DNA of 64,000 nucleotides from Porphyromonas sp. GTDB lineage: Bacteria > Bacteroidota > Bacteroidia > Bacteroidales > Porphyromonadaceae. The notes under the pieces are model-generated. The model was given only the letters and a program-made list of their open reading frames with translations, made no database searches and was not told the DNA's origin. The stretch spans positions 22,656-86,655 of the forward strand of contig JAUNLH010000002.1 in the NCBI GenBank assembly GCA_030532365.1, given 5' to 3'. Below are positions 8,123 to 34,877 of the stretch, piece by piece; within the stretch, counting starts at the first letter, position 1; each line of letters starts with the position of its first letter. The position numbers were made by a program, and so were the translations under genes.

Positions 8123-8162
8123 GGTCTGACTCTATGCTAGGTTGGGTGGTTGGTGATCGGCG

Positions 8163-8618
8163 CTAGAATGGGATCTCACTATGGTCTTTGGCTAGAGTGT
8201 CGAGATACTTGTCATAGGGAGCAGTGGAGGCTTTCGCTGGGCTGCTTTCTTGCTCCTCCTTGGGCTTCGGCTCCGCGATGACCTCTATCTTCTCGGCTAG
8301 TATCACCGCACTCTTTCGGCGATCTCCTCGATTGGTGCGCCATTGTTGATAGGTAAGTCGGCCCTCTACTCTTACGAGCATGCCCGGGCGGATGCTCAGC
8401 TCTACCTCTTTTGCTAAGTCGCGGTAGCAAAGGATGGAGTGCCAGTCGGTGATCTCTCCGACTACCGGCATCCCCTTGCTGTCGAGCTTGCCTTCGGTAT
8501 TGGTTGCTAGGGAGAAGCGGGCAGAGCAGACTTCCGGATCAATGTACTTGATCTTTGGCTCTTGTCCGACATTACCAACGAGGGTGATGTGGTTGTATGT
8601 CCGATTTTCCTTTCGCAT
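8163..8618 (-). CDS. ssb: Single-stranded DNA-binding protein
   Basis: 151 aa with an OB-fold N-terminus (ITLVGNVGQEPKIKY...WHSILCY) and an acidic/hydrophobic C-terminal tail ending in IPF. Confidence 0.9.
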   Translation of the reverse strand: MRKENRTYNHITLVGNVGQEPKIKYIDPEVCSARFSLATNTEGKLDSKGMPVVGEITDWHSILCYRDLAKEVELSIRPGMLVRVEGRLTYQQWRTNRGDRRKSAVILAEKIEVIAEPKPKEEQESSPAKASTAPYDKYLDTLAKDHSEIPF

Positions 8619-8723
8619 CTCTTAGAGCGTGTGTGTCAACTTACTCGGTGCAAAGTTACTACAAATTGGATACTTATCTCATCCGTTGGCGGGGTGTGCC
8701 TTTGTAGGGCTTCGACTTAGCTT

Positions 8724-9182
8724 CTAGTGGGGTAGGTACTCGTCGTAGCGCTCCCCAAATGCTGCCAACTCGCGGACTAGGGTGCTGCTGACCATCGCAA
8801 GCCGTGGATCAGCTAGGAGAAATAGTGTCTCCACTCCGAAGTGGTTGCGATTGACATCGGCTATAGCACGCTCCTGCTCAAGGTCTGAGGCGGTGCGTAT
8901 GCCGCGGATCAGTACTGCCCCATCGAGTGTAAGAGCGTACTTAGCCGTAATGCCCTCGTGGTGGGTCACGACGATGTGTGGCTCTCCCTCGTAAAGGTGG
9001 CGGATCGTGGCTAGTCGCTCGTCTAGTGGCTGGAAGGGCTGACCCTTATGAATGTTGACGCCTACGACGATATGTAGCTCATCGACAATGGATAGCGCCC
9101 TTCGGACAATATCATCGTGTCCAATGGTGAATGGGTCGAACGAGCCGGCGTAGACCCCTATGTGGTGCTTGCTTCTCTCCAT
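8724..9182 (-). CDS. coaD: Phosphopantetheine adenylyltransferase
   Basis: GVYAGSFDPFTIGHDDIV carries the (T/H)xGH nucleotidyltransferase motif. I prefer the ATG at 9182, one nt after the parE stop; the ORF track extends to 9215. Confidence 0.85.
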   Translation of the reverse strand: MERSKHHIGVYAGSFDPFTIGHDDIVRRALSIVDELHIVVGVNIHKGQPFQPLDERLATIRHLYEGEPHIVVTHHEGITAKYALTLDGAVLIRGIRTASDLEQERAIADVNRNHFGVETLFLLADPRLAMVSSTLVRELAAFGERYDEYLPH

Positions 9183-9183
9183 C

Positions 9184-11073: not shown

Positions 11074-11092
11074 TCTCTACTCTCTCCTATTC

Positions 11093-12238
11093 TCAGTCCA
11101 GCTCTTTGATATACGCGCGTCGCCTCTTGTGTCGCACTCTCTTGAAGTATTTCCATTGGAGCGATACACTTGCGTTAGTCTCGAGTTCCGGGTTGCTCTC
11201 CAGATAGCGTACATGGTATTTATTCATGATCGGTATCAAATCCTCAAATATGAGGGCATTGACCCCCTTATTCTGATACTCCTCAGCCACGGATATCAGC
11301 AGCATATCCACCACCTCAGGTCGCTTGGCGTTGACCGCTCTGAGCAGGTGTATGAAGCCAGTGGGAAAGAGCTTACCCTTAGCTTTCTGCAGAGCTCGGC
11401 TCATGCTGGGCATCGTGATACCAAATCCGACAAGTGCATTGTCCGCCTCTCGTACTATGAAGCTACAAAAATCCAGCTGTAGGAAGTTGATGTACTGCCC
11501 CGCCAGCTGATCGATCTGCTTATCAGTCAGCTCTACATAACCGTAGAGGTGCTTGTAGGTGTCGTTGAGTAGATAAAAGATATCTCTCGCATAAGGCATG
11601 ATCTCCTTTTTCTTCCGGAACTTAACCACCCTAAGACCGTACTTCTCCCGCACGATATTGCCCATTCTGATGTGCTTCTCCGGTATGCTCGATGGCACGT
11701 AGACCTTGTACTCGACCCAGTCGGTATCCTTCTCAAAGCCCATGTACTCCATATGGCGGATGTAGTAGGGGTAGTTGTAGTAGGTAATCATGGTGCCTAG
11801 CTGGTCGAAGCCCTCTACGAGCATGCCCTCCTTGTCCTGGTCGGTAAAGCCCATCGGACCGTGGACCGCCTCACAGCCTTTCTCGCGACCCCACTCTTCG
11901 ACAGCTTGCATAAGCTTCTGAGAGACAGCGAGGTCATCGATGTAGTCAAACCACCCAAAGCGCACTTGACTTTGGTTCCATATATCATTTGCCTTGTAGT
12001 TGCAGATGCCTGCGATACGACCCACCACCTCGTCTCCCCTGTATGCGAGAAAGTAGATAGCGTCACAGTATTCAAAGGCAGGGTTCACCTCGCGGTCCAG
12101 AGTCTCGAGCTCGCTCTCCAGCAGAGATGGCACGTAGTAGTCATTGCCTTTGTATAGCTTATGTTCAAACTCGACGAAGGTCTTCAGCTCTGCCTTGGTA
12201 TTCACCTCCTTGATGACAATGGAGGAGTCGTCCTCCAT
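11093..12238 (-). CDS. Large GNAT-like N-acyltransferase-fold protein, function unknown
   Basis: The ORF track gives 11093..12451. I prefer the ATG at 12238 (MEDDSSIVIKEVNTKAELKTFVEFEHKLYKGNDYYVP), because homologues as I recall them begin this way. ATGs at 12313 and 12301 are alternatives. The C-terminal VAEEYQNKGVNALIFEDL resembles an acetyl-CoA binding segment. Confidence 0.5.
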   Translation of the reverse strand: MEDDSSIVIKEVNTKAELKTFVEFEHKLYKGNDYYVPSLLESELETLDREVNPAFEYCDAIYFLAYRGDEVVGRIAGICNYKANDIWNQSQVRFGWFDYIDDLAVSQKLMQAVEEWGREKGCEAVHGPMGFTDQDKEGMLVEGFDQLGTMITYYNYPYYIRHMEYMGFEKDTDWVEYKVYVPSSIPEKHIRMGNIVREKYGLRVVKFRKKKEIMPYARDIFYLLNDTYKHLYGYVELTDKQIDQLAGQYINFLQLDFCSFIVREADNALVGFGITMPSMSRALQKAKGKLFPTGFIHLLRAVNAKRPEVVDMLLISVAEEYQNKGVNALIFEDLIPIMNKYHVRYLESNPELETNASVSLQWKYFKRVRHKRRRAYIKELD

Positions 12239-12458
12239 AGGCGACCTGAAGTATCGAAAGAGCCTCCGTCCGTATTTGTTGGAGGGCAGGCTTACATTCA
12301 TCGGGATCTTCATAGCACGTTTTGCTCTTATTTGTGTATAAGTAGAGCACAAATTTAAGTATAATTTCTGATAAGTGCCTTTTGACGCTACCGCGGAGAC
12401 CCGCTCGACACAGGGTATCAGGGTCGCTATTTGCTTAGGTAAGTTGGACAAAAATCGT

Positions 12459-12466
12459 TATCTTTG
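12459..12466 (+). promoter_or_regulatory. Candidate -7 box (TATCTTTG) for gyrB
   Basis: Exact TAnnTTTG match, 97 nt upstream of the gyrB ATG, in the divergent intergenic region. Confidence 0.3.
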
Positions 12467-12553
12467 TGTGATAAGAAATATAGATGCACAGCGGAGGGAG
12501 TGCCCATCGAGATGCACTCTAAAAAGCTGTCTAAAAGCATATAGATTAAGTAG

Positions 12554-14557
<2,004 letters not shown>

Positions 14558-14586
14558 TAGATAAGTATCCATAGGATCAAAGACGA

Positions 14587-14626
14587 GCGAGTCGTGCAAG
14601 TAATCACTTGCATGGCTCGCTTTTTT
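14587..14626 (+). terminator. Rho-independent terminator of gyrB
   Basis: GCGAGTCGTGCAAGT-AATC-ACTTGCATGGCTCGC forms a 15-bp stem with two G-U pairs. TTTTTT follows it, 30 nt after the gyrB stop. Confidence 0.8.
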
Positions 14627-14767
14627 GAATGACCACCTACGGATACTAAAGACCCTTATATGATATCAAAATAGTAATCGAAATGCCACTCGGGCGGTGC
14701 CTTGTTGTAGATAAAGAAGCACTCCTCAGTCACCTCTTCTGGTGCGCCCTCTTAGCTAGAGGCTCCC

Positions 14768-14871
14768 TGACCTCCGAACTTAAAAAATCTAAGTTCCCAA
14801 CTTCGATCGATCTAAGTTCCGGTCTTAGGCAAATCTAAGTTCCGAACTCCGACGAACCGAAGTTGGGGTCT
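14768..14871. repeat. Brick array B: leader plus four 23-bp phased units
   Basis: The leader is TGACCTCCGAACTTAAAAAATC. The units are TCTAAGTTCCCAACTTCGATCGA / TCTAAGTTCCGGTCTTAGGCAAA / TCTAAGTTCCGAACTCCGACGAA / CCGAAGTTGGGGTCT. Cores start at 14791, 14814, 14837 and 14860. Confidence 0.85.
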
Positions 14872-15048
14872 GCGTTTCAGAGAAGCTCCTAGGGAGGTTA
14901 TCTATAAATTCCTTTTCTAATAGATAGTACTTTGAAACTAATGAGGGTAGGGGGTGGGGATGTGCCTTTTCAATAGGTGGCAGAAATTCGTATCTTTACA
15001 GCTAAAAGGGGGTGGATCGTAATCGAGATCGTGAGAGAGGTTATTAGA

Positions 15049-16836
15049 ATGTTCTGCAGGTACAAATCGATATATAAGGGGTGGGTTGCACTATTATTCA
15101 TCACACTCATACTGAGTTCTCCTGCTCTGAAGGCACAAGAGAGCACCGATCGGGTTATGGATGAGACTTTGCTCTTTGAGCGTCTCTACAATAGGGCGAT
15201 GCAGGTCAATGAGCAAGACCCTACCCAGCTCTCCAAGCGTATCAATCTGCTCTGGATGGCGAGCCTGGTGGATGGTGATAACCCCGCTGTGCTCTCTGAG
15301 CTGGGCAAGGTGTACGGCTTGTGGCTCAATCAGCCGGCTGTCGGTCTCTCTATGCTTGAGACCGCCTTTGCCAATTCGGGCAACGACCTTTACATCGGTA
15401 TGGACCTCTTCGGGCTTGCTGTGGAGAGTAAAGACTATGATGTGGCGGAGCAGACCGCACTTAAGCTCCTAGAGAAAGATCCCAATAGCATACAGATCCT
15501 TGGAGCGCTGGTCTCCATTTATGAGGAGTCCGGACAGGAAGAGCTTGCCCTCAGCACACTACGACGGATCAAAGAGTACAACGAGCGACATGCCAAGCGA
15601 CCCGAAATCATCTATCGTGAGGTGAGCCTATTGGTGTCGCTGGATAGGCGAGAGGAGGCGATACAACTACTTGAGGAGCACATGTCGGAAAACCCCAAAG
15701 ATCCCACCTCCTATTCGTATATGATTGCCCTCTATACTGATTGGGCTGAGGCTGACAAGGCAATAGAAGTGATCGGGAGAGCGCTTGAGCGAATACCAGA
15801 CAATCCTATGATCAGGGAGGTTGCGGTCTCTTCTTATGCCCAACAAGGGCGATACCAAGAAGCGGTGGATCTGATACTAGAGGTTGCCAAGAGTGAAGGG
15901 GCGACGCAAGAGATGATCTCTGACTTAATCCTCTCAGCACGGAGAGGAGCGAAGTCTGTGACGGAACTATTGCCCTATTTGATGCCGGTAGAGGAGGAGA
16001 TCATTAAGCTCCTCCCTGAGACCGATCTCTTGGTGAGGGGGCTTGCTATTGAGCACTTCTTCGTAGGAGACTCGATACAGGCAGAGACGCTCTTTATGGA
16101 TCTGGTGAGGCGAGAGACACAGCTCGAGGAGCCCTATCACTATTTCATAGAGCAACTGATGTCTGAGGTCGATGATGAGTCTATTGCTAGCCAGATAGAG
16201 GAAGTGCTCGGGCATGGGCTCAACGCTCTACCAGAGGATGGCTTGATACAGCTATCTGCTATCTTTTTGTCGTTAGAGCAGGGCGATACGATTGCACATG
16301 TGAATAGGGTAAACCAAGCGATCGAGCTGGTGCCAAGGAGCGATCAAAGGTATGGGATGATAGCGCTCATCAAGGCTGACATGGAGCAGGAGGAGGACAA
16401 CTGGGAGGAGGCACAGCACTACTATGAAATAGCGATCACCTATCCTAACCCATTGGCTTATAATAACTACGCCTATGGGCTTGCCAATCGCGGGACAAGG
16501 GAAGACTTGGTGAGGGCTGAGGAGCTCGCACGTCGCGCAGTACAGATGTCCCAAGATGACTCTCCTCATGCCCTTGATACCTATGCTTGGATCCTCTACC
16601 TGAGGGAGGCATATACCTTGGCGCGCCTATATATGGAGAAGTCGCTAGAGCAGATGGAGGAGCCCGATCCTCTCTACTACGAGCATTATGCCCTTATACT
16701 GGTAGCGCTGGAGGACTACCATGGGGCAATCGAAGCGTGGCAGAATGCTCTTGACGCTGGGGGAGATGCAGATAAGATTGCTATCGAGATGGCGCAGTTG
16801 CGAGAGATGATGGATAAGAGCGAGCTGGAGCAATGA
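15049..16836 (+). CDS. Secreted tetratricopeptide-repeat (TPR) protein
   Basis: The ORF-track start at 14977 is a GTG. The ATG at 15049 gives a signal peptide (WVALLFITLILSSPALKAQ). The remainder is made of repeated TPR-like helical pairs. A near-consensus -7 box, TATCTTTA, lies at 14991-14998. Confidence 0.7.
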   Translation: MFCRYKSIYKGWVALLFITLILSSPALKAQESTDRVMDETLLFERLYNRAMQVNEQDPTQLSKRINLLWMASLVDGDNPAVLSELGKVYGLWLNQPAVGLSMLETAFANSGNDLYIGMDLFGLAVESKDYDVAEQTALKLLEKDPNSIQILGALVSIYEESGQEELALSTLRRIKEYNERHAKRPEIIYREVSLLVSLDRREEAIQLLEEHMSENPKDPTSYSYMIALYTDWAEADKAIEVIGRALERIPDNPMIREVAVSSYAQQGRYQEAVDLILEVAKSEGATQEMISDLILSARRGAKSVTELLPYLMPVEEEIIKLLPETDLLVRGLAIEHFFVGDSIQAETLFMDLVRRETQLEEPYHYFIEQLMSEVDDESIASQIEEVLGHGLNALPEDGLIQLSAIFLSLEQGDTIAHVNRVNQAIELVPRSDQRYGMIALIKADMEQEEDNWEEAQHYYEIAITYPNPLAYNNYAYGLANRGTREDLVRAEELARRAVQMSQDDSPHALDTYAWILYLREAYTLARLYMEKSLEQMEEPDPLYYEHYALILVALEDYHGAIEAWQNALDAGGDADKIAIEMAQLREMMDKSELEQ

Positions 16837-17714
16837 GACGTGCAGTAAGTAAATATACACTCCTCGGGTGGTTGTCGCTCCTACTTCTGGTGGCTGGAGT
16901 TGCCTCCTCGTGTGGTACTCAGAAGCGGGTCACTAGTGGCACCACAGCGGCACTTCCTACACTCTCGAAGAGGGAGTTCCTTAAGGCTTATAGCCACCTC
17001 TCGGCTCCTGTGGTGGTAGATGCAAAGGGGACCATTACGATGAATAGCGATGGCAAGACCAACTTTTCGAGTCCGATGCGATGGTCGCTAGCTCGTGATA
17101 GCCTCTTTGTCCTCTCCGTGCGCCCTCTAGGACTTGTGGAGGCGCTTAGGATGACAGTGAGTGAGGAGCACCTAGTGATCTTGGATAGGATCAATAGGAG
17201 AGGCTTCACGGCAGAGGATCCCTCGCTATTGTATCAGACAGCAACGGGGGTGACAGGCTTTGATGTCGCCATCCTCAAGAGTATAGCTCAGCAAGAGCCC
17301 TTTTCGCTCCTCCATGGCAGTGGAGTTGGGGTTCTGCGACAGATGGACTTCGCTCGCGATAGCCGTTATTACCGCTTTGAGGAGAGGGACAGACGAAGTG
17401 GGGCGCTTGTGGTGCACCTCTTCAGTCCGGCACTAGTCTTGGTAGAGAGCCAGTTCCGGATACCCAATGTCGGTGAGATTCGTGTCGCATATGGCGCACA
17501 CGAGTATCTCGATGGTCCTCTCTTTGCCACTCCGGTTGCTCGCCAGACTGATGTGACCCTGACGCTCATCTCAGAGCGGGAGATGGAGCAAATGAGGCTA
17601 AAGGTAGAGCTGGATGACCTGCGCAGGGAGCTGAGCCAACAGCCTGATACTGAGCTACCAAGTAGGTATCAGAGGTTGACCATACAAGAAATACTTAGGA
17701 GTTTCAGAGAATGA
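16833..17714 (+). CDS. Lipoprotein, DUF4292-like
   Basis: 293 aa with a lipobox (LLLVAGVASSCG). ATGA overlaps at both ends couple it to the TPR and M23 genes. This trio is conserved in Bacteroidota as I recall. Confidence 0.55.
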   Translation: MRRAVSKYTLLGWLSLLLLVAGVASSCGTQKRVTSGTTAALPTLSKREFLKAYSHLSAPVVVDAKGTITMNSDGKTNFSSPMRWSLARDSLFVLSVRPLGLVEALRMTVSEEHLVILDRINRRGFTAEDPSLLYQTATGVTGFDVAILKSIAQQEPFSLLHGSGVGVLRQMDFARDSRYYRFEERDRRSGALVVHLFSPALVLVESQFRIPNVGEIRVAYGAHEYLDGPLFATPVARQTDVTLTLISEREMEQMRLKVELDDLRRELSQQPDTELPSRYQRLTIQEILRSFRE

Positions 17715-18982
17715 AGTGTGTGTGGCGATATATCCCGTTGCTCTTGGTGTTGACACTCTTTGTGGTTCAGCCATTTATGGCTCAGACGCCCCCGAAGTCT
17801 GCAGCCGTACAGAAACTGGAGCGCCAGCGTAAGAGTATCCTAGAGAGCATCGAGCGGGTCAATCAACTGCTTAAGAAAGCCTCTACGGATGCAAAGAGCA
17901 GTCTCCAGCAGCTTCAGCTCCTAGAGAGCCAGATACGGTCGAGAGAGAAGATCATACAGACCCTAGAGGCAGAGATCAAGGTGACTGAGTCGCAGATAGT
18001 TGAGTTTCAAGTGAGGATAGCTGAGCTCGAAGAGCAATTTGCGAAGCGTCAGAAGAGCTACGTCTCCTCTATTCGTGCGATGCAGCGTCGCACCAAGACG
18101 GAGGATCAATTGTTATTTATCCTCTCCGCAGAGGACTTCGCGCAAGGGCTAAGGCGGGCTCGTTACCTCGCTGAGTATGCTACTTGGCAGAAAAAGGAGG
18201 GGGAGAAACTCCGTGCCTTGAGGGAGGAGCTTGATAGGGAGAAAGCGAATCTGGAGGCACAGAAAGAGCAGAAGGAGGTGCTTTTGACGAGCCGTAAGGA
18301 GGAGCAGGCAAACCTGGAGAACGATCGGAGCAAGAGCAGAGCTAAAGTGAAAGAGCTTAGGGGGCAGGAGAAGGAGCTTCAGCAGGAGCTGAAGCGTCAG
18401 AGAGCCCAAGCAGCGGCACTCAATAAGCAGATTGAGCAACAGATAGCTCGGGAGATCGCTGCAGCTGAGGAGGCAGCTCGGAAGCAAAAAGGACAGACCG
18501 GCAAGGCAACTCGCCAGGCTGCTACCAAGGGGGGCTATGCAATGACGGAGGCTGAGCTTAAGCTCTCTAGTAATTTTGCAGAGAATAGGGGGAAACTCCC
18601 AGCTCCGATCTCAGGGTACTATACAGTGATAGCACCTTTTGGCATCTATTCACCGGAGGGTTTGCGTAATGTCAGGGTGAATAACAGTGGTATCGACATC
18701 CAAGGTGCACAGGGAGCGGAGGCTCGGGCTGTTTTTGATGGGGTCGTAACCAAGATCTTTGTGGTAGAGGGGTATGACAATTCAGTCATCGTTCGGCACG
18801 GTAACTACCTTACCGTGTACAGCAATCTTACAACTGTATACGTCAAGACAGGCGACAAAGTCTCTACCGGACAGGCACTGGGTAAACTCTACAGTGACCC
18901 TGCGCTGGGTGGAGCTACCAAGTTGCACTTCCAGCTGTGGAAAGAAAGAACCAAGCTAGACCCCCAGCTATGGATCAGATAA
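17711..18982 (+). CDS. Peptidase M23 family protein with N-terminal coiled coil (EnvC-like murein hydrolase activator)
   Basis: 423 aa with a signal peptide and a long Q/E/K/L coiled coil. The C-terminal LytM/M23 domain includes GIDIQGAQGAEARAVFDGVV and HGNYLTVYSNL. Confidence 0.8.
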   Translation: MKCVWRYIPLLLVLTLFVVQPFMAQTPPKSAAVQKLERQRKSILESIERVNQLLKKASTDAKSSLQQLQLLESQIRSREKIIQTLEAEIKVTESQIVEFQVRIAELEEQFAKRQKSYVSSIRAMQRRTKTEDQLLFILSAEDFAQGLRRARYLAEYATWQKKEGEKLRALREELDREKANLEAQKEQKEVLLTSRKEEQANLENDRSKSRAKVKELRGQEKELQQELKRQRAQAAALNKQIEQQIAREIAAAEEAARKQKGQTGKATRQAATKGGYAMTEAELKLSSNFAENRGKLPAPISGYYTVIAPFGIYSPEGLRNVRVNNSGIDIQGAQGAEARAVFDGVVTKIFVVEGYDNSVIVRHGNYLTVYSNLTTVYVKTGDKVSTGQALGKLYSDPALGGATKLHFQLWKERTKLDPQLWIR

Positions 18983-18991
18983 GTAGGTGTG

Positions 18992-19984
18992 ATGACAAAG
19001 GTATTGCATAGCATAGATGAGTTGAAGTCCGAACTAGGATCAAACGAACAGTTGGTGGTGTCAGTGGGCTTCTTTGATGGGGTCCACAAAGGACATCAAT
19101 CGTTGATCAAAACGCTGCTCCAAGAGGCGGAGAAAGGCAATAAGCGCTCCGTGATTATCACCATGGATGAGCACCCGAGCAGAGTCCTGGGAGGCGATGG
19201 CGGTCAGGTGCCTCTCCTCACCTCTCAAGCTGAGCGTCTGCGACTTTTAAGAGCCGCGGGAGCGGATTTTTTACTGGTACTCACGTTTGATCGAGCTCTA
19301 TCTGAGATGAGCGCCGAACAGTTTCTTCAACCCCTGATAGAGCTAGGACTGAATGAGCTAGTATTGGGCTATGACAATAGGTTTGGTCATAATAGCCAGA
19401 GGTTAAGTCAGGAAGAGTTTGACACGCAGATCCGAGCAATGGGTTTGACGCTAAGGAGGGTAAAGCCCTTTGTCATAGATGGCGAGGTCACCGTTAGCTC
19501 GAGTGCGATACGGACTGCCCTAGCAGCTGGTGACTTCTTAGCTGTAGAGCGGTTGCTCGGGAGACCCTACTCTCTGGAGGGCGAGGTGGCTAAAGGGCGT
19601 CAGATCGGTAGATCTATCGGGTATCCCACTGCCAACCTATTTCTCGATGACGCTGAGGTGCTTCTGCCCAAGACTGGGGTCTACATCGCAGAGGTGATGT
19701 ATGGCGGAGAGCAGTACAAAGCAATGGGGTATCTCGGGAGTAGCCCGACAGTCACAGGATCAATGCAGGGCGAGCAACGTTTTGAAGCATTTTTGCTAGA
19801 CTTTAAGGGGGACATTTATGGCGAAGAGATAGAGGTCTATCTCCGCCTTTATCTACGTGGAGACATTCGTTTTGGCACCTTGGAAGAGCTGAAGCAGCAG
19901 TTGACCCAAGACGAAGTGCGCACCCGCAACTTCTTTAAGCAACAGGGACTTAGTGATACAAATAGAACAAAGCTGTGGAACTGA
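18992..19984 (+). CDS. ribF: Bifunctional riboflavin kinase / FMN adenylyltransferase
   Basis: VSVGFFDGVHKGHQSLI marks the FAD synthetase N-terminal domain. GRQIGRSIGYPTANL and the following block mark the riboflavin kinase C-terminal domain. Confidence 0.9.
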   Translation: MTKVLHSIDELKSELGSNEQLVVSVGFFDGVHKGHQSLIKTLLQEAEKGNKRSVIITMDEHPSRVLGGDGGQVPLLTSQAERLRLLRAAGADFLLVLTFDRALSEMSAEQFLQPLIELGLNELVLGYDNRFGHNSQRLSQEEFDTQIRAMGLTLRRVKPFVIDGEVTVSSSAIRTALAAGDFLAVERLLGRPYSLEGEVAKGRQIGRSIGYPTANLFLDDAEVLLPKTGVYIAEVMYGGEQYKAMGYLGSSPTVTGSMQGEQRFEAFLLDFKGDIYGEEIEVYLRLYLRGDIRFGTLEELKQQLTQDEVRTRNFFKQQGLSDTNRTKLWN

Positions 19985-20829
19985 TAGATATAAAAAAGGT
20001 CATACGTCAGAAGTACAAAGGCTATATGCCCAACTTCGTCTTCAAGTGGCTCGAACGCTTGATTGAACAAGATGAACTTAATAGGCTTCATACCCTCACC
20101 AAAGATATGAGCGGAGTGGATGCTGCTGACCGGCTCATTGAGGAGCTAGACCAGTCGGTTGAGGTGATAGGAGCAGATAGGTTGCCACCTAAGGAGGAGC
20201 GTTGCCTCTTCGTCTCTAATCATCCCCTCGGAGGTGCGGATGGCATCATATACACCTCGCTTCTAGGCAGGTACTATGATGGTAACATCGCACTCCTAGT
20301 AAATGATGTGCTCCTTAACCTAGAACAGTTCTCCGATGTCTTTGTTCCGGTCAATAAATATGGCACTCAGGGGCGTGATAGACACAAGATGATCGAAGAA
20401 GCCCTTCAGTCGGATAAGCAGGTCTTTACATTTCCTGCTGGTCTCTGCTCTAGGCTAGAGAACGGAGAGATACGCGATACTGAGTGGCATGTTAGCTTTG
20501 TACGTATGGCAAAGAGAAGTCAACGTACCGTGGTACCTCTGTACTTCGATGGAGTCAATAGCGACCGCTTCTACAACTGGGCTAATAGACGCAAGCGGAT
20601 GGGTGTGAAGTTTAACTACGAGTTGATCCTACTCCCTTCTGAGTTTGTTCACTCCAAGGGCAAGCACTATCGGATATACGTCGGAGAGCCCATTGCTCCT
20701 GAGGATCTCCCGTCTGGCACTTCCATTCATGCCTTTGCCGATCGCGTCTATCAAGAGATCTACAACTATCCAGAGCGATATGCCAATGAGCCAAAGGAGT
20801 TGCTCGTGTCGAAGAAAGAAAAACACTAA
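19975..20829 (+). CDS. PlsC-like lysolipid O-acyltransferase (GlsA/ChoB-like glycine-lipid acyltransferase)
   Basis: 284 aa with a GTG start overlapping the ribF stop. The acyltransferase block is SNHPLGGADG. It lies directly upstream of the N-acyltransferase gene, matching the Bacteroidales glycine-lipid pair. Confidence 0.65.
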   Translation: MELIDIKKVIRQKYKGYMPNFVFKWLERLIEQDELNRLHTLTKDMSGVDAADRLIEELDQSVEVIGADRLPPKEERCLFVSNHPLGGADGIIYTSLLGRYYDGNIALLVNDVLLNLEQFSDVFVPVNKYGTQGRDRHKMIEEALQSDKQVFTFPAGLCSRLENGEIRDTEWHVSFVRMAKRSQRTVVPLYFDGVNSDRFYNWANRRKRMGVKFNYELILLPSEFVHSKGKHYRIYVGEPIAPEDLPSGTSIHAFADRVYQEIYNYPERYANEPKELLVSKKEKH

Positions 20830-20842: not shown

Positions 20843-21862
20843 ATGAAACATCCTGACAACTATCAAGACCTTATAGCCCCCATTGATCCGGCTATCATCA
20901 AAGCCGAACTTTCGGAGCAACACCTGCTGCGCAAGACTAATAGAGCGGGCAATGAGCTATACACATTTCGCGCACAGGAGGCGCCCAATACGATGCTCGA
21001 ACTTGGGAGGTTGCGTGAGGAAGCCTTTAGGTATTACGGAGGTGGCACTGGGAAACCTGCTGACATCGATGAGTTTGACCTTGATCCCGATGGGTACTAT
21101 CAGCTGATTGTCTGGGATCCAGAGGAGCACATAATTCTAGGCGGTTATCGCTATATGCTTGGTGGAGATGTAAAGGTAAAGGATGGCAAGACGATGCTCG
21201 CTAGTAGTGAGATCTTTGACTACTCCGACCTCTTCCTCAAGGAGTATCTTCCTAGGAGCATCGAGCTGGGTCGGAGCTTTGTCCGAGTGGACTACCAGCA
21301 GGCTGGGTTGAGACCTAAGTCGATCTTTGCCCTTGACAACCTTTGGGACGGGCTAGGAGCGTTGATCTTGATACACGACCAGTACGAGTATTTCTTTGGC
21401 AAGGTGACGATGTATAAGGACTACAATCGCCAGGCACGCGATCTCATCATCTACTATATGAACACTCACTTTAGGTCGGAGGTCGATCTCATGCATGCTC
21501 TCTATCCGGTTCCCTACGAGACCCCAGTAGAGGAGCTAGCTGAGGTGATCAAAGGAGAGGATGCAAAGGCGGACTACAAAGCTCTCAATAAGGCGGTGCG
21601 CGACCTAGGTGTCAATATCCCTCCTCTAGTCAATGCCTATATCGGGTTGTCCTCCTCTCTTATGGTCTTCGATGTCAGTCTCAATGCGGGATTTTCCAAT
21701 GTAGAGGAGACCGGCATCATGATCCCGATGTTAGAGATCACAGAGGATAAGAAGCGGAGACATATTGAGAGCTTCCTCCGTGATGCGGCAAAGAAGTACC
21801 GACCCAATCTGATTGCCCGTATCCGTAAACGCCTAAGACCCGGGACTGCCTCAGACAAGTGA
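20843..21862 (+). CDS. GNAT-family (hemolysin-like) N-acyltransferase (GlsB/ChoA-like glycine N-acyltransferase)
   Basis: I prefer the ATG at 20843 (MKHPDNYQDLIAPIDP...); the ORF-track start at 20645 lies inside the previous gene. LGRLREEAFRYYGGGTGK..DIDEFD is typical of the ornithine/glycine lipid N-acyltransferase family. Confidence 0.7.
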   Translation: MKHPDNYQDLIAPIDPAIIKAELSEQHLLRKTNRAGNELYTFRAQEAPNTMLELGRLREEAFRYYGGGTGKPADIDEFDLDPDGYYQLIVWDPEEHIILGGYRYMLGGDVKVKDGKTMLASSEIFDYSDLFLKEYLPRSIELGRSFVRVDYQQAGLRPKSIFALDNLWDGLGALILIHDQYEYFFGKVTMYKDYNRQARDLIIYYMNTHFRSEVDLMHALYPVPYETPVEELAEVIKGEDAKADYKALNKAVRDLGVNIPPLVNAYIGLSSSLMVFDVSLNAGFSNVEETGIMIPMLEITEDKKRRHIESFLRDAAKKYRPNLIARIRKRLRPGTASDK

Positions 21863-22453
21863 GGCGAAAAATGTGGTCAGTAGGGGTACGCTCAAGTCGC
21901 AGACAATTCCGTGATATATAGAGGGTACCAAGTACTCTTGTCCTGAGCTCTTTAGGATAAATGGCAGTGGCACCTCCATGGTCGTCGCGCCACCGGCAGC
22001 AATGGGAGCGTATGGCCCAAACCAGCGAGCTAGGGGGTTGCTGAATAGTATGGCCATCAATTCGCGAAAGACATTGGAGAGCAGAGCGATCATCCCTAGC
22101 GTCACTCCAAGCTCCTCAGTCACGATAAGACCTGAGAGCGTGTAGCAGCCCTGCCCTGCTGAAATAGTGAGTGTGGCAAAGAGGGGCTTGACCAAGACTG
22201 CAGCGGCGAGTGCACCGCCGAGTATAGTCCCTATCATTGTGAGGATAGGGAGGAATAGAAGTCGCTTGGGTAGGCTACGGAAGCTCTCAAACATCTTACT
22301 ATCACTTCCGACCGACAGACCTACGCAAAACATGAGCATGTAGAGTAGGTAAAGTGTTATGTTTGACTCAGCTAAGTCGATGGGGAGTAGGTCGAAGCGA
22401 CCAAAGATGATGCCGAGTGCAAATATGCCTGCTAGGAGCAGTGTATCTTTCAT
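21851..22453 (-). CDS. LysO/DUF340-family membrane protein (large subunit-like), copy 2
   Basis: 200 aa, polytopic. Contains WFGPYAPIAAGGATTM and SGQEYLVPSIYHG. By eye it is roughly two-thirds identical to the adjacent 22538..23146 gene. Confidence 0.7.
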   Translation of the reverse strand: MKDTLLLAGIFALGIIFGRFDLLPIDLAESNITLYLLYMLMFCVGLSVGSDSKMFESFRSLPKRLLFLPILTMIGTILGGALAAAVLVKPLFATLTISAGQGCYTLSGLIVTEELGVTLGMIALLSNVFRELMAILFSNPLARWFGPYAPIAAGGATTMEVPLPFILKSSGQEYLVPSIYHGIVCDLSVPLLTTFFASLV

Positions 22454-22537
22454 GACTTGTTTCTTTCTTGTTAGAGATTAAGTGAGCGATCTGCTTTTTA
22501 ATGAGTTATGATCATTTCCCCTGCCATGGATAAGCCC

Positions 22538-23146
22538 CTAGAGCGTTACCAATGAAGCAAAGAAAGTCACTGAAAATGGGACGCTAAGATCACAGATAAA
22601 ACCGTGATAGATAGAGGGCACTAGGTACTCTTGTCCTGATGCTTTCAAGATAAATGGCAGTGTGACGTCCATCGTCGTTGCACCTCCTGCTGCGATAGGG
22701 GCATAAGGCCCAAACCAGCTAGCGAAGGGGTGACTGAGTATAATTGCCATGAGTTCGCGTATGATATTGGCTAGAAGTGCTATGGTGCCCACGGTTATCC
22801 CCAGCTCCTCCGTCAGGATCACACTCGACAGTGAGTAGTATCCGAGCCCGGCGGAGAGGGCAATCCCTGAGGCTACAGATTGCTTTAAGATCAATGCCGC
22901 TACCGTACCTCCTAGCCAGGATCCTGCAATGGTCAGGAATGGTAGCAGTAAGATCCGTATAGGTAGCTTCCGAAAGCTCTTCAAGGTCTCACTGTCATTG
23001 CCGATAGAGAGACCTACGCAAAACATCAGCGCATAGAGCAGATAGAGCACCAACTGCCCTCCTTGTACATCGAGAGGAAGGTGGTTGAGCCTGCCTAGGA
23101 TGATGCCGACAAGAAAGACGCCGACTAGGAGCAGGTTGTCCCTCAT
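22538..23146 (-). CDS. LysO/DUF340-family membrane protein (large subunit-like), copy 1
   Basis: 202 aa with the same conserved blocks as copy 2. Its start overlaps the stop of the small upstream membrane gene in an ATGA arrangement. Confidence 0.7.
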   Translation of the reverse strand: MRDNLLLVGVFLVGIILGRLNHLPLDVQGGQLVLYLLYALMFCVGLSIGNDSETLKSFRKLPIRILLLPFLTIAGSWLGGTVAALILKQSVASGIALSAGLGYYSLSSVILTEELGITVGTIALLANIIRELMAIILSHPFASWFGPYAPIAAGGATTMDVTLPFILKASGQEYLVPSIYHGFICDLSVPFSVTFFASLVTL

Positions 23147-23421
23147 GATTCCTCTTGCCCTTTCTTACGCCCCCATCGATAGAGTAGCCATGCTAAGAGC
23201 ACGCTGCCGAGGATTGCAAAGATGGCGATCGCGAGTGCAGCACCTCCGAGCTCGGGGAGGTTTTGTACCACCTCTTCGGAGCTACCGACCTCAAGCCCGA
23301 GGGCAAAGAGGAGCAAGAAGACCAAGACCGTTATCACCTTACCTACTGGTTTCAAGGAGTGTGCTCTGAGGAGCCAACCGACAAGTAGCCCTGCCAGTAA
23401 TATACCTATGATTGCGAACAT
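23143..23421 (-). CDS. Small LysO/DUF340-associated membrane protein (N-terminal module encoded separately)
   Basis: 92 aa with three predicted TM helices. It is translationally coupled to the downstream DUF340 gene. Confidence 0.6.
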   Translation of the reverse strand: MFAIIGILLAGLLVGWLLRAHSLKPVGKVITVLVFLLLFALGLEVGSSEEVVQNLPELGGAALAIAIFAILGSVLLAWLLYRWGRKKGQEES

Positions 23422-23570
23422 TCTTTTATTCTAATACTATGTCAAGTTGATAAACTTTTTCTGCCTAATGATGCCCAGATCAAAACGGGGCTCAATATAA
23501 TATTCTTTCCGCACTTTTCATAAAGCTGGAGGTAGATCCCACATAAATATGTGATAAGAAGCATAAATTT

Positions 23571-23673
23571 AGACCCCGAACTTAGAAAATCTAAGTTCCG
23601 GTCTTAGATGTATCTAAGTTCCCAACTTAGATGAGTCGAAGTTCCGGTCTTAGATTTTCTAAGTTCAGGGTCT
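23571..23673. mobile_element. Brick array C: complete 103-bp MITE-like element with 25-bp terminal inverted repeats
   Basis: The left end, AGACCCCGAACTTAGAAAATCTAAG at 23571-23595, matches the reverse complement of the right end at 23649-23673 with one mismatch. Five cores are phased 22-23-23-22 nt apart. Confidence 0.8.
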
Positions 23674-23693
23674 CGTATTTGCTTGGTACCGGA

Positions 23694-30266
<6,573 letters not shown>

Positions 30267-30279
30267 CTTTTGGTCTCTA

Positions 30280-33200
30280 TTAGAAGGTTAATTGCAATCC
30301 AACTGTGTACGAACGTGTGAAAGGATAGATGAGGTTGTCAATACCTGTATTGAGCACACTGCCTCTAGAGAACTCAGGGTCGATACCTGAGTATTTGGTG
30401 ATGGTTAGTAGATTTTCTCCGCTGATATAGAATCTTAGGTTGTCTATCTGAATGCGTTCGAGGAGACTCTTGGGAAGGGCGTACCCAATCTGTACTTGGC
30501 GCAATCTCACGAAGTCACCCGACTCAAGGAAGCGGTCGGACTCTAGCATGTTGCCATTAGGGTCTGAGAATACAGCTCGAGGCACAGAAGTGTCTCTGTT
30601 GTTTGGCGTCCATGCCTCGAGAGTAGACTTGAGGAAGTTGGAGCCTGAGTTCATACCCTCATAAAAGTAGCGGTTACCATTGTACAGCTTATGACCAAAT
30701 GCACCACTGAGTAGTAGTGAGAGGTCAATGCCCTTGTAATTTGCACCAAATGAGAGGTTTGCCTCAACTTTAGGCATTCCTGATCCGCAGTATTCCTTGT
30801 CTTGATCGTTGAGTACACCGTCACCGTTTACATCGACAAACCTAATGTCACCGGGCTTGGCGTTGCGCTGTAGGAGAGCTCCATCCTCTCCCTTATGAGC
30901 CATTACCTCCTCTTCGCTCTGGAAGATCCCGTCTGTCCTATAGAGGTAGTAAGCACCGATAGGTGCGCCGATGCGTGTCTGAGTTGGGAAATGCTCTGTA
31001 CCATACTTGAGCCCCTCGCCATAGATGGCTTGTCCCTCGTCTGATAGGTCTAGAACGCGGTTCTTGAGCGTGCTCACGTTGAGCCCGACGTTGTAGGTCA
31101 GTCCTTGGTACTCATCATTCCAGTTAAGCTCCAGCTCCATACCGCTGTTGCGGATCCGACCGACGTTGAGTGTCGGATTATTTAACCCTGCTGATGGGGG
31201 TAATACCTTTGTGATCAGAAGATCACGAGTCTCGTTATTGTAGTAGTTGACTGATCCGCTGAGCCTATTTCTGAAGAATCCGAAGTCGAGTCCTATGTTT
31301 TTGTTATCCGAAGTCTCCCACTTCAGTCCGCGGTTCTCTAGGTCTCTGGAGATGCTACCTGGCCAAGGGTTTTCTCCCTTGCCTGTGACGTAGCCTTGCC
31401 ATTTGGTATTTCCAGTAGAGATGAGAGATACGAAGTCGTACTTTCCGAGTGCCACCTCATTACCTAGGCGCCCCCAGCTAGCCCTTAGCTTGAGGTCGGA
31501 GATGGTGCCATCTTCGGGGAAGAAGTCCTCCTGGCTGATCCTCCAGCCTAGTGCTACAGATGGGAAGTACCCCCAACGGCTGTCTGCTCCGAACTTCGAT
31601 GAGCCGTCTCTGCGGAGTGTCAGCTGAGCCATGTATTTGCTCTGATAGCTATAGTTGAGGCGCCCGAAGATGGAGAATCTGCGGTAGTCTACTCTTGTGC
31701 CCTCACCGCTATAGGTGCCCCCTTCTCCAGCATTGATAGTGTCAAAGCTAGGATCTAAGAAACCGGCTGGCACCTCAGTGGTGACCAGGTTGCCATGCTC
31801 ATCTACGCTGTATGTGATAGACTTGCCCTCGACACTGACACTACTCCACTTGTACTTCTCATTGGTAAGCGAAGTCCCTAGCATTGCACCAAAAGAGTGG
31901 TCAGAGCCCGTAGGAGAGTTGTAATTGAGGACGTTGTCAAATATCTGTTCTTCCCAATAGCCTGAGAACTCTGTGTGCTCGGTATACTGCTGCTTTGAGC
32001 GGATATCTGCCACGTAGGGAGCCACGTGGTCTGATTGTTTCTCGTGCTCTCCTCTATAGCCGTAGCTGGTTCGGAAGGTGAGTCCATCGTAAAGGTCAAA
32101 CGTCAACCCTACATTGGCATTGGTATTGTACTTCTGGTTGAGGCGTTTACGATAATCGTTGTCCGCCATTACGTTTCTGTTGTTTGGGAGCCCATCGAAG
32201 TTGGTAAGCCCGTAGCCCGACTCTTGAGTCTCATCATAGATAGGCACGAGCGGAGAGATCATGTACATTTCCTTTAGGCTATATCTAGGCTGCCTGCTAG
32301 CTGTGTACTTAAAGCTCAGGTTCGCATCCATTGATACGATCCCCTTCTTGAGGTTCAGCTTTGTACGAGCTAGGTCGTGTCTGTAGTTGTTGCCCAGGAA
32401 GATACCCTTATCATCGCTCCTATTGTATGATATTGTGTACTTTCCCTTAGAGCCACCTCCTCGGATACCTACCATGTAGTTCTGAGATAGTCCATTACGA
32501 AGCATAGCATCTTGCCAGTCAGTATCTACACCTGTGTTATGCGTGATGTATGTAGGTAGTGCTATCTGTTCACCTGAAGAGACATGAGCGTTGAAGTTGT
32601 CGTACATCGACTTGTGTATCTGTTTGTACTCCTCAGCATTTAAGAATTCTAGCCTCTTCGCCACCTTTTGAGCGCTGAGGTAGCTACTGAACTCCACCTT
32701 GATCTCGTCCTCGATGCCAGATTTTGTAGTTATGAGTACTACTCCGTTGGCAGCGACTGAACCATAAATAGCAGCTGCAGCACCATCCTTTAGTATTTCC
32801 AAGGAAGCGATATCCTGAGGATTGATAGAATTGATGTTTCCTGGGAATCCATCAATAATGTAGAGTGGCTCGTTGTCGCCAAAGGTGTTGACACCACGGA
32901 TCTTTACACTCACCCCAGATCCAGCATTGCCACCACTCTTCATGATATTCACACCTGCCACCTTACCCTGGAGCGCTTCTGCGGGGTTAGTCGTAGCACG
33001 CTTTGTCAGATCACCTCCGTCAACGGTCGTGATGGCACCAGTTACGTCGCTTTTACGCATAACACCATAGCCCACTACGACCACCTCGTCAAGTAGATCA
33101 GCATCTTCTTGCATGACGATATTAAGTGGGGTATCTGCTGAGGTGATCTTGATCCTCTGAGACGCAAATCCCACATAGCTGCATTCTAGAATATCTCCGA

Positions 33201-33717
33201 TGGCAGCCTTGATTTCAAACTCCCCATCCAGGTTGGTGGCAGTTCCTCCACTCCGGTCTTCAATCTTAATGGTTGCTCCAATCACCTCCCATCCGCTAGC
33301 ATCTACCACTTTACCACGGATGGTGTGCATTTCGCTAGTTACTGGCTCTTGAACCGTAGTCCTGTCGCTGATAGAGAGGTACTTATCTTGATGTGTGATG
33401 CGCTTGCCTGTGATTTTTTCAAGCTGACCTAGCAGTTCATTCAGCGCCCAGTTCCCTTTTGGAAGAGTGATCTTTTCTGAGATATCTATCTGTCCTTCAT
33501 TAAAGACAAAGAGGCAACCAGTTTGCTCCTCCACCTTCTCGATTAGCTCTCCAAGGGTTACAGAGGTATTGGTAAGTGTAACAGTGCCTGACTGTGCCCA
33601 AACTAGTGTGTAAGATGGGCTGAGACATAAAAGTAGTAGGAGTACAGTGGCTCTAAAGCGACTCTGTGTAGCATGTCGAAGCCAACTCCAAATCTTATTG
33701 ATGTTGTGATTCATCAT
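30280..33717 (-). CDS. SusC/RagA-family TonB-dependent receptor with N-terminal STN signalling extension
   Basis: I prefer the ATG at 33717; the ORF track extends to 33807. After the signal peptide comes an STN-like block (VTLTNTSVTLGELIEKVEEQTGCLFVF). A carboxypeptidase-regulatory-like domain follows, then the TonB box/plug (LDEVVVVGYG) and a beta-barrel ending in F. Confidence 0.9.
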   Translation of the reverse strand: MMNHNINKIWSWLRHATQSRFRATVLLLLLCLSPSYTLVWAQSGTVTLTNTSVTLGELIEKVEEQTGCLFVFNEGQIDISEKITLPKGNWALNELLGQLEKITGKRITHQDKYLSISDRTTVQEPVTSEMHTIRGKVVDASGWEVIGATIKIEDRSGGTATNLDGEFEIKAAIGDILECSYVGFASQRIKITSADTPLNIVMQEDADLLDEVVVVGYGVMRKSDVTGAITTVDGGDLTKRATTNPAEALQGKVAGVNIMKSGGNAGSGVSVKIRGVNTFGDNEPLYIIDGFPGNINSINPQDIASLEILKDGAAAAIYGSVAANGVVLITTKSGIEDEIKVEFSSYLSAQKVAKRLEFLNAEEYKQIHKSMYDNFNAHVSSGEQIALPTYITHNTGVDTDWQDAMLRNGLSQNYMVGIRGGGSKGKYTISYNRSDDKGIFLGNNYRHDLARTKLNLKKGIVSMDANLSFKYTASRQPRYSLKEMYMISPLVPIYDETQESGYGLTNFDGLPNNRNVMADNDYRKRLNQKYNTNANVGLTFDLYDGLTFRTSYGYRGEHEKQSDHVAPYVADIRSKQQYTEHTEFSGYWEEQIFDNVLNYNSPTGSDHSFGAMLGTSLTNEKYKWSSVSVEGKSITYSVDEHGNLVTTEVPAGFLDPSFDTINAGEGGTYSGEGTRVDYRRFSIFGRLNYSYQSKYMAQLTLRRDGSSKFGADSRWGYFPSVALGWRISQEDFFPEDGTISDLKLRASWGRLGNEVALGKYDFVSLISTGNTKWQGYVTGKGENPWPGSISRDLENRGLKWETSDNKNIGLDFGFFRNRLSGSVNYYNNETRDLLITKVLPPSAGLNNPTLNVGRIRNSGMELELNWNDEYQGLTYNVGLNVSTLKNRVLDLSDEGQAIYGEGLKYGTEHFPTQTRIGAPIGAYYLYRTDGIFQSEEEVMAHKGEDGALLQRNAKPGDIRFVDVNGDGVLNDQDKEYCGSGMPKVEANLSFGANYKGIDLSLLLSGAFGHKLYNGNRYFYEGMNSGSNFLKSTLEAWTPNNRDTSVPRAVFSDPNGNMLESDRFLESGDFVRLRQVQIGYALPKSLLERIQIDNLRFYISGENLLTITKYSGIDPEFSRGSVLNTGIDNLIYPFTRSYTVGLQLTF

Positions 33718-33766
33718 AAAGCTGTTGTTCAATAGTTTTTTGATTGTTGTTGTAAATATGTTATTA

Positions 33767-34753
33767 TTACTCTCCGATTTTAATTGTGTGTTCACCGACC
33801 ATCTCATAGCGTAGCCCTAGACTACAACATACCGCCTCCACTATGCTCTTAAGACTGTCCCCCTGGCGTATCTTACCACTAAGTCTGCGGTCTTTCAGCT
33901 CCTCGTTGACAAATATGATCTCTGCCCCATACCAGTGCCCGATCTCTGCAAAGATCTGAGAGAGAGGAGTATTCTTATACTGCACAATGCCTACTTTTCG
34001 GTTTGCTATCTGCGAGAGAGACTCGAAATTCTTTACAAGTCGTCCATCTCGTAGGAGCAGGCTCTCTCCAGGTGTAAGGGGTACGGTGTCCCTTGCCGAG
34101 TACAAAGTCACTCCACCCTCTAGTAGCGATAGGTGAAGTGGAGATAGCTGATCGGACTGAAGATAAAACTGTGTTCCTGTGACGACTACATCATACCCAC
34201 ACTTAGTCTCTACCTTAAAAGGCGCGGTCTTATTGTGTGCCACATCAAAGAACGCAGCTCCCTCTAGCCGCACATTACGGTGTTTGCCTTTTGAGTAGCG
34301 TGCATCAAAGGTCATCTTTGAGCAGGGGCTGAGGTGGATAGTTGTGCCATCGTTCATGGTGAAGAGCAACCTCTGTCCTGTGGGTGCTGCTACCTCCGTC
34401 ACTTGTTGGCTCAATACTTGATCAGTACGATATTCGCTGTATATGCGTCCCCCTAGCACGATGATTAGCACTGCAGCAGCATATTTTATCGATTGCATCC
34501 AGAGCTTCCTCCATTGTTGCTGCTTCGTGGACTTTTTCCACTGTCTTAGGCTTCGCATACCATTACTCATGTCTCCCTCTCTTGGGGCTGCTACAAGTAG
34601 CGAGATGGTGTTATATCGTCTTCGCAGTCCCTTTGCTATTTCAGGGCGCTCCGACAGGTATCGTTGTAGCTCTTCCGCCTCTGTTGCAGTGAGCTGACCC
34701 GTCAGATACTTCTCTATCAGCGACTCGTAATATGTATGATCAGTTGGCATCAT
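33767..34753 (-). CDS. FecR-family anti-sigma factor
   Basis: I prefer the ATG at 34753 (MMPTDHTYYESLIEKYLTGQLTATEAEEL). It has one TM helix (YAAAVLIIVLGG) and a periplasmic FecR domain. It sits directly upstream of the STN-SusC gene. Confidence 0.8.
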   Translation of the reverse strand: MMPTDHTYYESLIEKYLTGQLTATEAEELQRYLSERPEIAKGLRRRYNTISLLVAAPREGDMSNGMRSLRQWKKSTKQQQWRKLWMQSIKYAAAVLIIVLGGRIYSEYRTDQVLSQQVTEVAAPTGQRLLFTMNDGTTIHLSPCSKMTFDARYSKGKHRNVRLEGAAFFDVAHNKTAPFKVETKCGYDVVVTGTQFYLQSDQLSPLHLSLLEGGVTLYSARDTVPLTPGESLLLRDGRLVKNFESLSQIANRKVGIVQYKNTPLSQIFAEIGHWYGAEIIFVNEELKDRRLSGKIRQGDSLKSIVEAVCCSLGLRYEMVGEHTIKIGE

Positions 34754-34877
34754 TTCTTCTTTCTTGGACTGTCCTTTACTTATAGACGCGCTCCCCTTCA
34801 AAAACCCTTAAAGAAAATTGAACTTTTTTCTTGATTTTGATGAAATACATTAGTAGGCTTTCGTAAATGGTTGAGGT

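Follow-up and report, generated by a model that had tools for sequence, protein, structure and literature searches.

What is the 103-bp block of phased palindromes at positions 23571-23673 of this 64,000-nucleotide stretch from an uncultured Porphyromonas species (GenBank assembly GCA_030532365.1, contig JAUNLH010000002.1; the whole analysed stretch is hereafter called the window)? A first-pass annotation had described it as an element resembling MITEs (miniature transposable elements with inverted repeats), built from 22/23-bp palindromic bricks and seen four times in the window. It had compared the block to BrickBuilt of Porphyromonas gingivalis, with an array of operators as the alternative. 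We found that the block is one member of a genuine family of short, dispersed, non-coding elements in this Porphyromonas genome. The family is new, though of a type already known, and it is distinct from BrickBuilt. Our preferred reading, to which we give a probability of roughly 0.6, is a lineage-specific, non-autonomous, hairpin-forming intergenic repeat, mobile now or formerly, of the MITE kind or of the REPIN kind (REP doublet forming hairpins; REP, repetitive extragenic palindrome).

The type copy (copy C, 23571-23673) is an inverted repeat of 50/3/50 nt with 80% complementarity, and is composed of five units phased at 22-23-23-22 nt with the unit core CTAAGTT-NNN-AACTTAG. Its sequence and phasing had been quoted correctly: AAGTT cores start at 23593, 23616, 23639 and 23661, the fifth core start at 23571 holds as an AGACC variant, and the outer 25 nt are indeed inverted repeats with one mismatch. 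The four-copy brick family in the window was also confirmed, and the further copies (5944-6058, 14768-14874 and 40765-40870) align end to end with the type copy. A tandem period of 23 was reported by TRF at 23589-23666, 5962-6040 and 40789-40861. Searching the window for CTAAGTTNNNRWCTTAG with up to 2 mismatches gave 21 matches, where 1.4 were expected, and a looser brick core, RAGTTSSSRNCTY, gave 23 matches against 0.5 expected, all of them within the four named loci. The core counts and the inverted-repeat structure thus show that the observation is correct and far beyond chance. Element size across the copies is 103-115 nt, typically about 105 nt. A profile hidden Markov model (HMM) made from the four copies recovered exactly four matches in the window (92-100 bits) with zero degenerate extras, and a search of the window with the end motif returned the four copies only. 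Since the copies align end to end and the HMM recovered exactly four, the family consists of a well-delimited element some 105 nt long rather than a minisatellite of variable length. The copies and the bricks of the type copy are as follows; no strand is assigned to them, for the reason given below.

23571-23673: copy C, five bricks; it serves as the type copy and is the most intact.
23571-23585: left terminal brick of copy C, AGACC-CCG-AACTTAG, which forms a terminal inverted repeat with 23659-23673.
23591-23607: internal brick of copy C, CTAAGTT-CCG-GTCTTAG, carrying the GGTCTT variant of the right half-site.
23614-23630: central brick of copy C, CTAAGTT-CCC-AACTTAG, a perfect 7-3-7 palindrome (9-3-9 with its flanks).
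23637-23653: internal brick of copy C, CGAAGTT-CCG-GTCTTAG.
23659-23673: right terminal brick of copy C, CTAAGTT-CAG-GGTCT.
5944-6058: copy A, with brick loops CCC, CCC, GGG and GGG.
14768-14874: copy B, between gyrB and a TPR-protein gene.
40765-40870: copy D, with a degenerate left end, between a Y_phosphatase3 gene and guaB.

Placed in register, each of the four copies consists of two terminal and three internal units. The inner units are 7-3-7 palindromes, or 9-3-9 when the flanks are included (ATCTAAGTT...AACTTAGAT), with the unit consensus ATCTAAGTTSSSAACTTAGATNN. The outer units are truncated variants, AGACC...AACTTAG and CTAAGTT...GGTCT, which together make up terminal inverted repeats of 15-25 nt, reaching 25 nt with 1 mismatch in copy C and being weaker yet recognisable in A, B and D. 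The element ends read AGACCCCGAACTTAG and, as its reverse complement, AGACCCTGAACTTAG. Similarity between the copies ends at the outer bricks, and the copies are made wholly of five bricks. A leader and a tail, which the first-pass annotation had included in the architecture, were therefore not borne out, the ends being bricks themselves. Stop codons interrupt 22 of the 24 copy-frame combinations, and the two open frames, both in copy D, are open across its 106 nt only. The copies are richer in A+T than their surroundings (G+C 0.41-0.47, compared to about 0.51 for the window). Like generic MITEs, which DDE transposases mobilise, they are small and non-coding, occur in several dispersed copies and have terminal inverted repeats.

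The alignment of the four copies spans about 110 columns with a mean column identity of 69%. Pairwise identity is 67-75% and similar in either orientation; because identity is alike both ways, an orientation of the copies relative to genes or chromosome was considered and dropped, as there is no reliable polarity. In the internal bricks, AAGTT is found 16 times out of 16, and the left half-site as a whole, TC(T/G)AAGTT, hardly varies. The right half-site reads AACTT in about 10 of these 16 bricks and GTCTT in five of them, and next to no information (about 0-0.8 bits) is carried by the 6-nt spacers that separate the bricks. An invariant half-site in otherwise diverged copies points to a recognition constraint. 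The simplest candidate for what recognises it is the enzyme copying the element, with a host DNA-binding protein being less likely. The 3-nt loops alternate between C-rich and G-rich (CCC and GGG) at aligned positions across copies, which is the outcome that template switching in quasi-palindromes would be expected to produce.

Self-complementarity of every unit allows the block to fold, over its entire length, into a single long hairpin when present as single-stranded DNA or RNA, or to form a cruciform. Copy C was predicted to form a single long hairpin on either strand, with RNA folding energies of -56.6 and -57.5 kcal/mol (z -9.9 and -11.4) and a DNA folding energy of -33.7 kcal/mol (z -11.3). 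Copies A, B and D fold less well (z -3.4 to -6.8 relative to shuffled controls). The symmetry axis differs in register, falling on the central brick (23614-23630) in copy C and on a spacer in copy A. Single bricks are weak hairpins of -3 to -5 kcal/mol as DNA. Rfam returned zero families at the gathering threshold over the whole window, and at an E-value threshold only miRNA-precursor models, which lie far below their cut-offs and reflect nothing but the long hairpin. A literature search with the core sequence gave an unrelated primer as its sole match.

Where else does the family occur? GyrB and IMP dehydrogenase (IMPDH) of the window match proteins from a metagenome-assembled genome of Porphyromonas sp. 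at 100% identity. The nearest relatives of the host are 86% identical in GyrB and 88% identical in IMPDH, followed by Porphyromonadaceae bacterium W3.11 (80-81%) and by P. levii and P. somerae (78%), and P. gingivalis lies outside the best 120 GyrB matches. Three independent short-read contigs (L024, L030 and L035) come from the only further sample of the species, Logan accession SRR24915805, which is identical to the window at copy C. A partial fifth copy, copy E (ACTTCGATACATCTAAGTTCGGAACTTAGAATTTTTAAGTTCGGGTATCG), was found at L030 1-50, which corresponds to about window position 64,850-64,900, some 850 nt past the right end and about 280 nt upstream of a DUF4831 gene. Ends of these contigs fall inside copies: L024 ends in copy C (window position 23579), L030 starts in copy E and L035 ends in copy D (about 40834). 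As copies account for less than 1% of the sequence, this is unlikely to be a coincidence, and it suggests either that near-identical copies exist elsewhere in the genome or that coverage was lost at the hairpins. Extrapolating from five copies in 65 kb to a genome assumed to be about 2.3 Mb would give about 170 copies per genome. In contrast, about 58 kb of sequence from relatives (L025-L028 and L031-L034; 80-88% identity in GyrB or IMPDH) contained zero copies, where about 4.5 would be expected by applying the copy density of the window. In the nearest relatives, synteny around gyrB and guaB differs from that of the window. The family was not found in viral contigs or in JGI metagenome contigs, the sole match in the latter (L029) being an unrelated sequence of high G+C. 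A pattern scan of reference genomes gave at least 23 loci, with none from the host species among the matches listed. Among the sequences sampled, the family is thus restricted to the host lineage.

We believe that these observations fit best with a mobile non-coding element. In this model, the enzyme would be a transposase whose gene lies elsewhere in the genome; recognising the brick half-site or the hairpin, it would copy the element into permissive intergenic sites. Neighbouring genes might be affected, for instance by a barrier to read-through or by a hairpin at a transcript's 3' end, but such effects would be incidental and would not account for the existence of the element. The reading is supported by copies that are homologous from end to end, by unrelated neighbours, by a hairpin potential far beyond that of shuffled controls, by the lack of coding capacity, by the constrained half-site and the loop flips, by the restriction to one lineage and by the contig breaks, which are the behaviour expected of a multi-copy repeat. 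That the element transposes, what kind of enzyme moves it and how many copies the genome carries are points that we infer. Several observations weigh on the other side. A target-site duplication is not visible at any copy, and the boundaries of A-D show no consistent direct repeat; the copies are old, with ends that are in part degenerate. Divergence among the five known copies amounts to 25-33%, and none is demonstrably a recent insertion. Contig breaks may also stem from poor sequencing or assembly across strong hairpins. Finally, Pfam matches revealed no transposase and no REP-associated tyrosine transposase (RAYT) among the approximately 40 of 54 window genes scanned; RAYTs are single-copy genes, and absence from about 3% of the genome says little.

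The neighbourhood of the copies was compared with what had been claimed for it. All four do lie between co-directional genes, as the first-pass annotation had stressed, but this placement was rejected as a signal, since 47 of the 53 gaps in the window are co-directional anyway (p about 0.62). The distances to the genes came out about as given once start codons were corrected, at 21-211 nt past the upstream stop and about 150-265 nt before the next start. Copy C begins 21 nt past the stop of a GH63-like gene (23694-25640, minus strand) and lies 150 nt before the start of a LysO-family gene (23421). Copy A is flanked by a PPTase gene (stop at 6166) and a PDZ/DUF4136 gene, both on the minus strand. 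Copy B lies 211 nt past the gyrB stop, upstream of the TPR-protein gene. It is preceded by the strong intrinsic terminator of gyrB (14585-14622, plus strand), a 17-bp stem with a T-run located 28 nt past the stop and 145 nt before the copy. Copy D begins 48 nt past the stop of the Y_phosphatase3 gene, and the -7 promoter box of guaB, TAACTTTG (40681-40688, minus strand), is located about 75 nt beyond it. The flanking gene pairs (PPTase/PDZ, gyrB/TPR, GH63-like/LysO and phosphatase/guaB) are functionally unrelated, and the scanned window genes are those of an ordinary core chromosome, including parE, gyrB, ssb, ribF, ftsK and a V-type ATPase operon.

A few features near the copies deserve mention in their own right. 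Copy C sits at the 3' end of a locus resembling a polysaccharide utilization locus (23694-34801, minus strand), which contains a FecR-type anti-sigma factor, a large SusC-sized open reading frame (ORF), a SusD-like gene, GH2 and the GH63-like glycosidase. On its other side, at 21851-23421 (minus strand), two LysO-family (PF03956) paralogues lie in tandem, each about 200 aa long, together with a separate 92-aa ORF that matches the N-terminal part of that family. A guaB promoter/leader motif, TAAnTTTGCAnGCAAGTTGG(G)TACC, is present at 40655-40690 (minus strand) of the window and at about 4460-4500 of L031, a contig from the relative with 88% IMPDH identity. Further along, a 10-nt tandem repeat (ATGAAAGGGT, 3.6 copies) occupies 44788-44823 within a putative 115-aa ORF that has no Pfam match.

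Two readings would give the bricks a role at the sites where they lie. According to one of them, the alternative already raised in the first-pass annotation, the 17-bp 7-3-7 palindromes would be operators for a dimeric DNA-binding protein, and arrays of three to five of them would control the gene downstream or give the chromosome a local organisation. The half-sites are 10 bp apart from centre to centre, a classical geometry for dimer operators; TCKAAGTT stays invariant where the spacers drift; and each copy has a gene downstream whose start is 150-265 nt away. However, the loci show neither a coherent regulon, nor a fixed position relative to the promoter, nor conservation in relatives. The downstream genes are functionally unrelated, and the distance to the promoter varies, copy D being about 75 nt from the guaB -7 box and copy B lying between the gyrB terminator and the next gene. 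Relatives (L031 and L032) keep the guaB promoter and the 5' leader motif without bricks. Additionally, terminal inverted repeats and a fixed block of five units are features of an element rather than of operators that evolved independently. Because of the unrelated neighbours, the varying promoter distances and the brickless guaB promoter in a relative, we consider an operator array unlikely, and the alternative proved to be a weak one. The other reading places the function at the RNA level: in the transcript of the upstream gene, the hairpin would terminate transcription, shield the 3' end from exonucleases or mark a site of processing. Copies C and D, which start 21 and 48 nt after a stop with no intervening terminator, would suit such a role, as would the great stability of the hairpins as RNA and the U-rich stretch AAAUUUAUGCUUCUUAU that follows copy C on the sense strand. 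Against it, gyrB has its own terminator before copy B, copy A follows a terminator-like hairpin (judged by eye), and the hairpins of A, B and D are followed by no sense-strand U-tract (for copy D, by reading the sequence). The arrangement of an intrinsic terminator, a hairpin and U-tract directly after the upstream gene, is thus not that of the family, and terminator scans of 23100-23800 and 1-20000 listed none of copies C, A and B. The different register of the symmetry axis in A and C, and the lack of any Rfam match beyond the spurious miRNA-precursor ones, also speak against a function in RNA. We regard such a function as distinctly improbable. Since two copies follow separate terminators and three of four have no U-tract, a dedicated role as terminator or RNA stabiliser is unlikely to be the general function.

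A third possibility stays close to the mobile-element reading and differs from it only in the enzyme and in the degree of domestication. The bricks could be a Bacteroidota counterpart of REP sequences, recognised as hairpins or as duplex dimers by a single-copy domesticated Y1 transposase (RAYT) or by a nucleoid protein, and the five-brick block would then be a cluster long kept in the genome, like a REPIN or a bacterial interspersed mosaic element (BIME). The units are short, palindromic, regularly spaced and clustered (palindromes of 17-21 nt at a period of 22-23 nt, as in REP/BIME/REPIN units), their loops flip in orientation, and one half-site is strongly constrained in old, diverged copies. 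No target-site duplication is visible, as is the case with HUH/Y1 enzymes. Analogous 22-nt phased palindromic arrays with different cores, described below, occur in metagenome-assembled genomes (MAGs) of other Bacteroidales, and a hairpin of 22-nt units lies upstream of guaB in a Porphyromonas relative. On the other hand, nearly all REP families carry a GTAG or CGTC tag (PMC3733652), while the conserved flank of the brick is TC(T/G)AAGTT; the stems are A+T-rich and weak (-3 to -5 kcal/mol), none of the roughly 40 scanned window genes is a RAYT, and the search that returned the arrays of other taxa imposed AAGTT...CTT pairs, so that some of their likeness stems from the pattern itself. Taken together, we consider this account to be rather improbable. 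Membership in BrickBuilt itself is by far the least credible explanation. BrickBuilt, as Klein et al. 2015 (PMC4596501) define it, is a MITE/minisatellite with a non-palindromic 23-nt unit, AGAYCATARTATCCTCTCRTRTG, a long distinct leader and tail, IS5-type ends, GAGACCTTTGCA / TGCAAAGGTCTC, and hosts confined to P. gingivalis and P. gulae. It shares with our family the genus, a 23-nt tandem period and a strictly intergenic location, and the element ends here begin with (G)AGACC as those IS5-type ends do. Yet the window contains no match to its unit with up to 3 mismatches allowed, the copies have no non-repetitive leader or tail, the terminal repeats diverge after the first 5-6 nt, so that at most (G)AGACC is in common, the units here are palindromic and fixed at five in number, and the host is neither P. 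gingivalis nor P. gulae. The pattern search and the feature-by-feature comparison with the published description (PMC4596501) led us to reject identity with BrickBuilt. Of the likeness drawn in the first-pass annotation, the architecture (23-nt period, intergenic location, genus) stood, and membership did not, given the unmatched unit, the missing leader and tail, and ends with at most (G)AGACC in common.

Phased palindromic arrays are found more widely in Bacteroidales. The reference-genome search used a pattern that forced AAGTT...CTT pairs, and the resemblance of the arrays it returned is partly built in. Among the matches listed were Bacteroidales MAGs with 22-nt phased palindromic arrays of other cores, mostly located between long ORFs. 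Three contigs from human gut and yak rectum (L005 7110-7290, L007 2950-3110 and L017 1190-1380) carry 5-7 units of 22 nt, AAAGTCGGCAACTTT, with the palindromic core AAAGTYGSCRACTTT, and the arrays of L005 and L017 are flanked by 16-nt inverted repeats, ATCGAAAGTACTGAAA / TTTCAGTACTTTCGAT. Porphyromonas sp. UMGS18 (L018 2093-2227) has about 6 copies of AAAGTTCCCGCCTTGGAACTCG phased at 22-23 nt, and a Bacteroides MAG (L011 6070-6180) has an array with the core GAGTCCGGAACTYAT. Further 22-23-nt phased arrays with other cores, mostly intergenic, were seen in other Bacteroidales (L015, L019 and L023). Outside the order, two Chloroflexota MAGs (L002 290-400 and L006 2670-2720) contain clustered CAAGTTGSCAACTTG palindromes at 25-29-nt spacing, which are REP-like. 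Found independently of the pattern, a hairpin of 38/2/38 nt with 92% complementarity lies upstream of guaB in a Porphyromonas relative with 83% IMPDH identity (L033/L034 9641-9727). It is composed of 22-nt units with the core AGTTGCAACT, so its architecture is like that of the window family and its sequence is different.

Such arrays could be taken as signs of an undescribed system in Bacteroidales, similar to REP/BIME and RAYT, in which a dedicated protein, perhaps a domesticated transposase or a nucleoid-associated dimer, would maintain lineage-specific 22-23-bp phased palindromes (TCKAAGTT-N3-AACTT in our host). The sequences of the palindromes would turn over between species while the architecture is kept. 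Hints in this direction are the half-site that stays invariant at 25-33% divergence, the arrays of L005/L007/L017, L011 and L018, and the guaB hairpin of the relative. We consider the proposal speculative and rather unlikely; if the Bacteroidales pattern is in fact one system with a dedicated protein, it would be of wider interest.

Assemblies break at small intergenic repeats, which also seed rearrangements and are able to change promoter activity or the stability of transcripts; in Bacteroidota, they have been little studied apart from P. gingivalis. The family presented here is a clean example with an uncommon construction, in which five self-complementary 23-bp units make up a fixed block. 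It explains the places at which short-read contigs of the host species end, and it offers a marker sequence specific to that species.

How does the family compare with known systems? BOX elements of Streptococcus pneumoniae are modular intergenic repeats whose terminal modules are partly complementary and whose internal modules stand in tandem; they have no transposase of their own. The bricks resemble them in being modular and intergenic, with a stable secondary structure and no own transposase, and differ from them in that BOX modules are non-palindromic, 45-59 nt long, unrelated in sequence and located in another phylum. Within Porphyromonas, the K-antigen capsule operon of P. gingivalis reportedly has a 77-bp inverted repeat upstream, and such structures are said to be able to bind HU and to affect expression. 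Compared by description only, that repeat is similarly large and intergenic, and could take on the shape of a cruciform or stem-loop; it is a single locus with no brick periodicity reported. MITEPgRS/MITE464 of P. gingivalis is likewise a Porphyromonas MITE with internal tandem repeats, but its units are 41 nt long, its ends are of the IS5 type (GAGACTGTTGCA) and the elements are longer (PMC4596501).

The likeness to REP/BIME/REPIN sequences and their RAYTs (PMC2817692, PMC3116915, PMC3733652) lies in short imperfect palindromes, in regular clusters with changes of orientation that are able to form larger hairpins, in intergenic location and in showing no visible target-site duplications. REP sequences differ from the bricks in their GTAG/CGTC tag and their G+C-rich stems, compared to the weak A+T-rich stems here, and in forming variable mosaics, whereas the bricks form a fixed five-unit block with terminal inverted repeats in a window whose scanned genes include no RAYT. 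BrickBuilt is the closest in general design, sharing the genus, 23-nt tandem units, a strictly intergenic location, predicted long stem-loops, the lack of an Rfam match and hosts limited to particular species. Its non-palindromic unit, AGAYCATARTATCCTCTCRTRTG, is unrelated to the palindromic unit found here, ATCTAAGTTSSSAACTTAGATNN, its ends read GAGACCTTTGCA where ours read AGACCCCGAACTTAG, and its unit number of 1 to 22.8 and length of 84-991 nt (PMC4596501) contrast with five units and 103-115 nt in our family. Judged from these sequence features, the resemblance to BrickBuilt is one of architecture and not of descent.

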